From the sequence record OR958571.1: a stretch of DNA of 64,000 bases. One strand, given 5' to 3'. Position numbers and translations under genes: made by a program. The stretch's first letter is position 1. Each line of letters opens with the position of its first letter. The notes beneath the pieces are model-generated. The model was not told where the DNA came from and searched no databases. It saw only the letters and a program-made list of their open reading frames with translations. This DNA comes from Escherichia phage 121/2022-2B. Positions 14,539 to 16,415 of the stretch are shown here, one piece after another.

Positions 14539-14850
14539 TTATACCGCCATTTTTCCTTTCAAGACACCGTGGGATTGATAATCTTTGAGAACGAAATCTT
14601 TAGGCCTGAGTTTAAGAATGTATTCCAATTGTTCTTTAGTAGAAAGATAGCGGAATTTATAAGGCAATCCGCCTATTACCAGTTCACAAAGCTCTTTAGG
14701 TTCACGACGCAAAATTTCTTTACATTGTTCTACGTGATTCATATAGATATGAGTATTACCGCCAGAAAATATCAAATCTCCAGGAATAAGATTACACATC
14801 TTAGCTACAATATGAACTAACGCAGCATATGATGCAATATTAAATGGAAG
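14539..14850 (-). CDS. td: thymidylate synthase, exon 2 (103 aa)
   Basis: Translation LPFNIASYAALVHIVAKMC... is the conserved TS C-terminal half; exon starts at 14850 immediately after the intron 3' end (...ACATAATG|CTTCCATTT on minus). Confidence 0.9.
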   Translation of the reverse strand, partial: LPFNIASYAALVHIVAKMCNLIPGDLIFSGGNTHIYMNHVEQCKEILRREPKELCELVIGGLPYKFRYLSTKEQLEYILKLRPKDFVLKDYQSHGVLKGKMAV

Positions 14851-15866
14851 CATTATGTTCAGATAAGGTCGTTAATCTTACCCCGGAATTATATCCAGCT
14901 GCATGTCACCATGCAGATCAGACTATATCTCCAACTTGTTAAAGCAAGTTGTCTATCGTTTCGAGTCACTTGACCCTACTCCCCAAAGGGATAGTCGTTA
15001 GGCATTTATGTAGAACCAATTCCATTTATCAGATTTTACACGATAAGTAACTAATCCAGACGAAATTTTAAAATGTCTAGCTGCATCTGCTGCACAATCA
15101 AAAATAACCCCATCACATGAAATCTTTTTAATATTACTAGGCTTTTTACCTTTCATCTTTTCTGATATTTTAGATTTAGTTATGTCTGAATGCTTATGAT
15201 TAAAGAATGAATTATTTTCACCTGAACGATTTCTGCATTTACTACAAGTATAAGCAGAAGTTTGTATGCGAACACCGCACTTACAAAACTTATGGGTTTC
15301 TGGATTCCAACGCCCGTTTTTACTTCCGGGTTTACTGTAAAGAGCTTTCCGACCATCAGGTCCAAGTTTAAGCATCTTAGCTTTAACAGTTTCAGAACGT
15401 TTCTTAATAATTTCTTCTTTTAATGGATGCGTAGAACATGTATCACCAAACGTTGCATCAGCAATATTGTATCCATTAATTTTAGAATTAAGCTCTTTAA
15501 TCCAAAAATTTTCTCGTTCAATAATCAAATCTTTCTCATATGGAATTTCTTCCAAAATAGAACATTCAAACACATTACCATGTTTGTTAAAAGACCTCTG
15601 AAGCTTTATAGAAGAATGGCATCCTTTTTCTAAATCTTTAAAATGCCTCTTCCATCTCTTTTCAAAATCTTTAGCACTTCCTACATATACTTTATTGTTT
15701 AAAGTATTTTTAATCTGATAAATTCCGCTTTTCATAAATACCTCTTTAAATATAGAAGTATTTATTAAAGGGCAGTCCTACAATTTAGCACGGGATTGTC
15801 TACTAGAGAGGTTCCCCGTTTAGATAGATTACAAGTATAAGTCACCTTATACTCAGGCCTCAATTA
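14851..15866 (-). mobile_element. group I self-splicing intron in td (1016 bp) carrying I-TevI
   Basis: Exon 1 ends ...TTC TTG GGT then TAATTGAGGCCTGAGTATAAGGTGAC... (minus), which matches the T4 td intron 5' end as I recall it. Exon 1 + exon 2 = 183 + 103 = 286 aa, the T4 TS length. Confidence 0.9.
14998..15735 (-). CDS. GIY-YIG homing endonuclease I-TevI (intron-encoded)
   Basis: 245 aa; N-terminal GIY-YIG (SGIYQIKN...KVYVGSA), central Zn finger (CKCG...CSKC) and C-terminal DNA-binding region; wholly inside the td intron. Confidence 0.9.
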   Translation of the reverse strand: MKSGIYQIKNTLNNKVYVGSAKDFEKRWKRHFKDLEKGCHSSIKLQRSFNKHGNVFECSILEEIPYEKDLIIERENFWIKELNSKINGYNIADATFGDTCSTHPLKEEIIKKRSETVKAKMLKLGPDGRKALYSKPGSKNGRWNPETHKFCKCGVRIQTSAYTCSKCRNRSGENNSFFNHKHSDITKSKISEKMKGKKPSNIKKISCDGVIFDCAADAARHFKISSGLVTYRVKSDKWNWFYINA

Positions 15867-16415
15867 ACCCAAGAAAACATCTACTGATCGTTGATACCAC
15901 TGCAAATCCAAATAGCCATTACGCACATTAAACTGATAGAACATATGACAAGGTGGTAATGCCATCTGCTTGAGTTCAGCTGGATTCCATGCCGACACAA
16001 TTTGACGTCTATCATTGGGAAATGTTTTAATACGATTAACAACTTCTACAATTTGATCTACACCACCAAAATCACGCCACTGTTTTCCGTAAATTGGACC
16101 AAGTTCACCGCTATGATAACCTAAGTCTTTGGCCTGGTTTTCGTAGTTTTCATCCCAAATTGTTTTTCCTGCAATTAAAGATCCATGAGTACGTTGACGT
16201 AAATCATTTACGTTAGTACTTCCTGATAAGAACCACAATAACTCAGAAATACACGCATTCCAGGCGAGCTTCTTGGTTGTTACTGCAGGAAAACCTTTAG
16301 TTAAATCCCAGCGCAATTTAGTACCGAACAAAGCAATTGTTCCTGTGCCTGTTCGGTCATCGGTTTCATAGCCATTTTCAAAAATGTCTTTAATTAAATC
16401 TTGGTATTGTTTCAT
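15867..16415 (-). CDS. td: thymidylate synthase, exon 1 (183 aa)
   Basis: MKQYQDLIKDIFENGYETDDRTGTGT... with the active-site region PPCHMFYQF; the ORF is closed by an in-frame TAA that is the first intron triplet. Confidence 0.9.

Follow-up and report, generated by a model that had tools for sequence, protein, structure and literature searches.

The td gene of Escherichia phage 121/2022-2B is interrupted by what is, judging from its sequence, almost certainly the group I intron (subgroup IA2) known from td of phage T4, a self-splicing ribozyme and mobile DNA element. The T4 td intron is among the best-studied mobile introns in biology, and the state that we describe, a td intron with I-TevI next to an uninterrupted nrdB, is already known and found alike in many public genomes. 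The whole stretch of DNA under analysis, a window of 64,000 nucleotides, is a T4-like (Tequatrovirus) segment that is colinear with T4 127,770..168,903 and then with 1 to ~23,144 at ~85-97% identity. In the phage collection, the best match to the 12 kb around td (8000..20000) reached ~97%, and as it is no closer than this the isolate itself is absent from the collection; the gene order of the isolate is standard. Phage WL-3 is colinear with the window across the entire 12-kb region.

Layout of the td locus and identity of the intron

The anatomy of the locus can be read directly from the minus strand. Exon 1 (16415..15867) comprises 549 nt with codons 1-183 and ends in ...TTCTTGGGT, or in longer form ...GTTTTCTTGGGT. 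It is followed by an intron of exactly 1016 nt (15866..14851, minus) that starts with TAATTGAGGCCTGAGTATAAGGTGAC and ends with ...ACATAATG and ...GAACATAATG, and by exon 2 (14850..14539, minus), which begins with CTTCCATTT and contributes 312 nt, stop codon included, with codons 184-286. An in-frame UAA (TAA in the DNA) directly after exon 1 occupies intron nucleotides 1-3. Removal of the intron restores the host frame and gives a thymidylate synthase of 286 aa, joined at ...VDVFLG|LPFNIASY.... As evidenced by a comparison with Pfam PF00303, this product covers all profile positions (1-266/266, 318 bits), and it aligns with the T4 enzyme in PDB 1TIS over 1-286/1-286 with zero gaps.

The I-TevI reading frame (15735..14998, minus) lies entirely within the intron and encodes 245 aa with a GIY-YIG nuclease, a Zn-finger linker and a helix-turn-helix DNA-binding domain. 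Its product is identical to T4 I-TevI in 245/245 residues. The catalytic domain is recognized by PF01541 at residues 3-90 (E=2.1e-18), and residues 1-97 match the solved structures of this domain, PDB 1MK0/1LN0, with E ~1e-61. The Zn finger (PF22635) falls on residues 149-179 and the DNA-binding domain (PF20987) on residues 192-242; residues 130-245 are identical to PDB 1I3J, the solved DNA-binding domain. An earlier note on this DNA had proposed that td is split by a 1016-bp group I intron carrying I-TevI, that joining the exons gives the 286-aa enzyme across this very junction, and that the 245-aa GIY-YIG/Zn-finger frame is wholly intronic. Its boundaries proved right to the base, and the full-profile and gapless alignments bear out the joined product. 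For annotation, td is best given as a single CDS joined across the intron, within which I-TevI is a gene of its own; in many deposited genomes td appears instead as two 'thymidylate synthase' fragments.

An alignment to the T4 td intron (NC_000866.4), suggested in the same note, revealed a shared insertion site and 1013/1016 identical positions. The first of the three differences is a 1-nt indel, one T fewer in the window, between intron nucleotides 92/93, just 3' of the 5' strand of P6. The second, G/A at nucleotide 263 with G in the window, is a synonymous change inside the I-TevI frame, and the third, A/C at nucleotide 949 with A in the window, lies in the unpaired J7/9 joint. Among deposited phage genomes 36 contain an intron that is 100% identical over the 1016 nt, and 193 records of the phage collection match at 99% identity or more, so that chance resemblance is not at issue. 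The T4 td intron is described as self-splicing (PMC2988022). Splicing, regulation and homing of the present copy would be expected to follow those of this experimentally characterised element, to which it is nearly identical, and the 99.7% identity makes guanosine-dependent autocatalytic splicing the probable mode.

Ribozyme fold and introns with a deleted reading frame

The ribozyme is divided into a 5' segment (15777..15872, minus) with P1, P2, the 5' strand of P3, P4, P5 and the 5' strand of P6, and a 3' core (14862..15002, minus) with the 3' strand of P6, P7, P7.1, P7.2, the 3' strand of P3, P8, P9, P9.1 and P9.2. Helix positions are given in intron numbering, with negative numbers for exon 1. 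P1 is formed by exon bases UUGGGU (-6..-1) and the guide GCCUGA (9-14), with 6/6 pairs and a U(-1)·G9 pair at the 5' splice site. All helices from P2 to P9.2 consist of standard pairs throughout: P2 (15-21/26-32), P3 (39-44/910-915), P4 (48-53/72-77), P5 (58-60/66-68), P6 (87-90/865-868), P7 (871-876/941-946), P8 (916-922/929-935) and P9 (951-957/962-968), together with P7.1, P9.1 and P9.2. The core helices P3-P9 are thus present in the P3/P7 pseudoknot topology. Note that the reading frame of I-TevI runs into the 3' strand of P6, with which its stop codon and the sense codon before it share bases. For P7.2 the helix register is uncertain, as the minimum free energy fold favours 891-895/900-904 over the register first drawn. 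A P10 of 3 bp can form between GAG at intron positions 6-8 and CUU, the first three nucleotides of exon 2, and the last base of the intron is G1016 (omega G; window position 14851, with ...ACAUAAUG running up to the junction). Every helix from P1 to P10 is therefore in place, as are the terminal G and, at the 5' splice site, the U·G pair; helices P1-P9, which the earlier note had suggested looking for by folding, are among them.

The minimum free energy fold of an ORF-deleted construct recovers P2-P6, P8, P9 and P9.1, with a modest thermodynamic z-score of -2.13. In six copies of the td intron the helices are 100% paired, compared to 32-45% in slid registers, where it has to be considered that the structure was read from the window sequence. 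Only three substitutions occur in helices among the copies, and pairing is kept in all of them: one is compensatory, an A-U to U-A exchange in P8 of phage N2, two are one-sided and none is disruptive. In the covariation analysis of the six near-identical copies, 84/500 shuffles scored as well; as the copies are so similar, these statistics are supportive but too weak to serve as independent proof.

A scan of the whole window against Rfam at gathering threshold returned zero matches. With E-value reporting, RF00028 aligned to 14899..15129 (minus) with 42.5 bits and E=3.5e-9, covering the 3' core only, against a gathering score of 50, and the 5' ribozyme segment scanned alone was not significant (11.4 bits, E=1.1). 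The window remains under 50 bits because the 738-nt reading frame in P6a, an insertion of ~770 nt, splits the core, and the model is unable to bridge it. By searching with the spliced td CDS we found td introns from which this reading frame has been deleted. I-TevI is wholly or for the most part gone from the introns of phages MLP2 (320 nt, L005 850..1169), N2 (254 nt, L006 850..1103) and PD112 (262 nt, L007 850..1111), and the intron of phage G28 (445 nt, L008 850..1294) retains a 55-aa remnant. All four cores can be matched to that in the window nucleotide by nucleotide, and the introns of MLP2, N2 and PD112 score 66.9-73.8 bits against RF00028 (66.9, 72.6 and 73.8), above the gathering score. 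In these four natural cases the endonuclease has decayed while the ribozyme around it was kept. The annotation of phage N2 also lists a gene for an I-TevI-like endonuclease immediately downstream of nrdA.2, on the other strand.

Taking the missing Rfam match to mean that no ribozyme is present was rejected, both on the 42.5-bit match of the 3' core and on the ORF-deleted copies that exceed the gathering score. The same missing match might also favour a decayed, splicing-dead relic, with td inactive and the phage dependent on ThyA of the host. We consider this very improbable, as every paired core position is the same as in the self-splicing T4 intron, both exons are open and jointly yield a thymidylate synthase of full length that covers the profile entirely, the changes relative to T4, three in number, are synonymous or outside helices, and the identical sequence is found in 36 independent isolates.

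For a splicing-competent copy of the T4 element, the course of the reaction can be outlined as follows. The last six bases of exon 1, UUGGGU, would pair with the guide GCCUGA to form P1, placing a U·G wobble where cleavage occurs, and the P3-P9 core, in which P7 binds guanosine, would catalyse the attack by an exogenous G. Exon ligation would be next, at the terminal G1016, giving the message for the 286-aa thymidylate synthase. The I-TevI gene lies in the loop of P6a.

Predicted control of I-TevI, probable homing and exon variation

A 12-bp hairpin (15734..15765, minus; intron 102-113/122-133, -16.4 kcal/mol) buries the Shine-Dalgarno sequence GAGG and the AUG of I-TevI, and it is overlapped by the sequence AATAAATA (15759..15766, minus), which resembles a T4 late promoter. 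In the T4 element such a hairpin keeps I-TevI from being translated except from late transcripts, the late promoter of I-TevI is repressed by the protein itself, which acts at an operator resembling the homing site, and de-repression is detrimental to splicing (PMC2988022). While the hairpin and the promoter-like sequence are evident in the window, their regulatory function would be that known from T4. Here, read-through transcripts would have the ribosome-binding site and AUG of I-TevI locked in the hairpin, and translation would be confined to late transcripts from the intron-internal promoter, itself repressed by I-TevI. The published 15/20 alignment of operator and homing site was not reproduced in the window from the text, and we accordingly claim no operator coordinates.

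Exon 1 differs from T4 at 64/549 positions and exon 2 at 37/312, as opposed to 3/1016 in the intron. This contrast between ~12% exon and 0.3% intron divergence is, at the level of the alignments, a classic homing signature, and it lends indirect backing to site-specific double-strand cleavage and homing by the present element. In line with it, an exon piece of td is found at 95% identity or more in only 6 records of the phage collection, compared to the 193 that match the intron at 99% or more. I-TevI cleavage follows a 5'-CNNNG-3' rule, 23/25 nt upstream of the insertion site; the mechanisms of cleavage and co-conversion have been reviewed (PMC2988022). In the window a CAACG at 15889..15893 (minus), -27..-23 from the insertion site, agrees in position with this rule, and the intron now separates it from the exon-2 binding site of I-TevI. 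On encountering a td allele without the intron in a mixed infection, I-TevI would be expected to bind around the insertion site and to cut at CNNNG 23/25 nt upstream; double-strand-break repair would then copy the intron, along with exon sequence next to it, into the recipient allele.

The end of exon 1 reads TTC TTG GGT, the P1-forming sequence, in every intron-bearing allele examined, while the intronless alleles of T2, RB27 and F13076 have the synonymous TTT CTT GGT or TTT CTC GGC instead. At the junction of intron and exon 2, the best listed matches to the window comprise 60/60 bases in other deposited genomes, and 98 records show at least 99% identity over the aligned part. More improbable still is a chimera from assembly or contamination, with T4-type intron reads placed on a divergent td: an intron ~100% identical to common laboratory phages between exons only ~88% identical to T4 might suggest it, but the same contrast extends across hundreds of independent genomes as homing predicts, the end of exon 1 has the intron-specific P1 codons, the junction recurs as described, and the window is colinear with its closest relatives for 12 kb.

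In its last 87 nt exon 1 differs from T4 at one site, and the first 100 nt of exon 2 are identical to those of the intronless T2 and RB27 (CTTCCA...), the corresponding bases being CTACCG in T4 and CTACCA in T6. An exon 2 of the T2/RB27 type gives a P10 of 3 bp rather than 2 bp. The intron-linked P1 codons and the T4-like tract of ~87 nt on the 5' side, together with the T2/RB27-type exon 2, might point to homing or recombination in which scarcely any sequence on the 3' side was co-converted, an interpretation that we offer tentatively and regard as rather unlikely. Both types of exon-2 junction are frequent among intron-bearing genomes, and as they are common among sequenced phages, a state with low 3' co-conversion has probably been sampled already. 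A search of IMG/VR for an intronless allele with the intron-type exon-1 end, that is for precise intron loss, gave zero matches, as did a search for the junction sequence of the window; these counts are uninformative, since just one contig there has the 3' end of the td intron.

Separately, a patch of 33 nt in exon 1 (td nucleotides 217-249; 16167..16199, minus) differs from all nine other aligned td alleles, encoding RQRTHGSLIAG in place of RLIQHDSLIQG, and looks like a small mosaic segment.

nrdB, genome context and comparison with known systems

The inventory of introns in the window covers td and nrdB; nrdD, the third intron gene of T4, lies outside it. In the window nrdB (11660..10482, minus) is an uninterrupted reading frame of 392 aa with the ribonucleotide reductase small-chain domain, as the earlier note had stated, and it is colinear with the exons of T4, from which it is set apart by a deletion of 598 nt. 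T4 position 138457 is joined directly to 139058, so that exactly the 598-nt nrdB intron of T4 is missing, and the sequence is continuous at the corresponding site (~10985). T4 139719 is likewise joined to 140420, by which nrdB.1 and mobE, a free-standing HNH endonuclease, are absent, and the spacer between nrdA and nrdB is ~55 nt (11660..11716). The intron and the neighbouring mobE would either never have been acquired by this phage or have been lost. Note that identity of nrdB to T4 is 83% upstream of the T4 intron site and ~96% downstream, and that a variable segment at NrdB residues 172-205, unlike that of T4, results in 392 aa as compared to the 388 of T4.

The mixed intron state put forward in the earlier note thus holds for the window, td having its intron and nrdB none, but it is not unusual, as T6 and many sequenced relatives have the same. 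At a coverage of at least 80% the td intron is found in 196 records of the phage collection and the nrdB intron in 118. That the nrdB intron occurs variably in T-even phages has been on record since 1987, to go by the reference list of PMC2988022 and by PMC2790892. The td locus adds a further case to what is well documented for T4-like phages, a patchy occurrence of mobile introns and homing endonucleases, and it raises no new question.

A number of further departures from T4 were noted along the window. Between frd and td, which overlap in T4 with no counterpart there, lies a reading frame of 119 aa (16460..16819, minus) that corresponds to RB32ORF229c of T6/T2 (phrog_1928, of unknown function) and has no Pfam match. 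Another one of 106 aa, not in T4 (7113..7433, minus; phrog_2364, unknown function), is located between pseT and pseT.1. A SegG-like free-standing homing endonuclease of 210 aa (20065..20697, minus; phrog_7504, E=1e-133) lies, as it does in T4, downstream of gene 32; this frame gave no Pfam match at E<=0.01. Topoisomerase gene 39 (44451..46271, minus) is a single uninterrupted frame of 606 aa, and the region is without the T4 cassette 2806..3911 that holds the gene 60 translational-bypass segment, 60.1 and mobA. At 57489..58211 segF is absent, T4 15610..16270 being replaced by ~140 nt, and there is no dam methyltransferase gene between genes 56 and 61, where T4 16825..17725 is reduced to ~20 nt; gene 56 itself is just 76% identical to T4. 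The distal tail-fibre region with the equivalents of genes 37/38 (28852..32829) has no blastn match to T4 and presumably represents a host-range module swap.

Among known systems, the td intron of T4 (NC_000866.4, td 143235..145112) agrees with the present one in host gene, in the insertion site after ...TTCTTGGGT, in helices P1-P9.2, in an I-TevI protein that is 100% identical and in the unchanged sequence of the regulatory hairpin. The two loci differ in their exons, which are ~12% divergent as opposed to 0.3% for the intron, and in the start of exon 2, CTTCCA in the window and CTACCG in T4, by which a third pair in P10 becomes possible in the window. The T4 nrdB intron with I-TevIII, together with mobE, is a sister group I intron from the same phage family and a neighbouring gene cluster, and is absent in the window. 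The ORF-deleted td introns of MLP2, N2, PD112 and G28 share insertion site and ribozyme core with the window; most or all of I-TevI is gone in these phages, whereas the window has the full intact reading frame. Phage T6 (MH550421.1) resembles the window in a td gene with the 1016-nt intron and I-TevI, in its uninterrupted nrdB and in the extra small reading frame of the RB32ORF229c type between frd and td, but it has mobE between nrdA and nrdB, where the window has none, and the 3' half of its exon 2 is a different mosaic.
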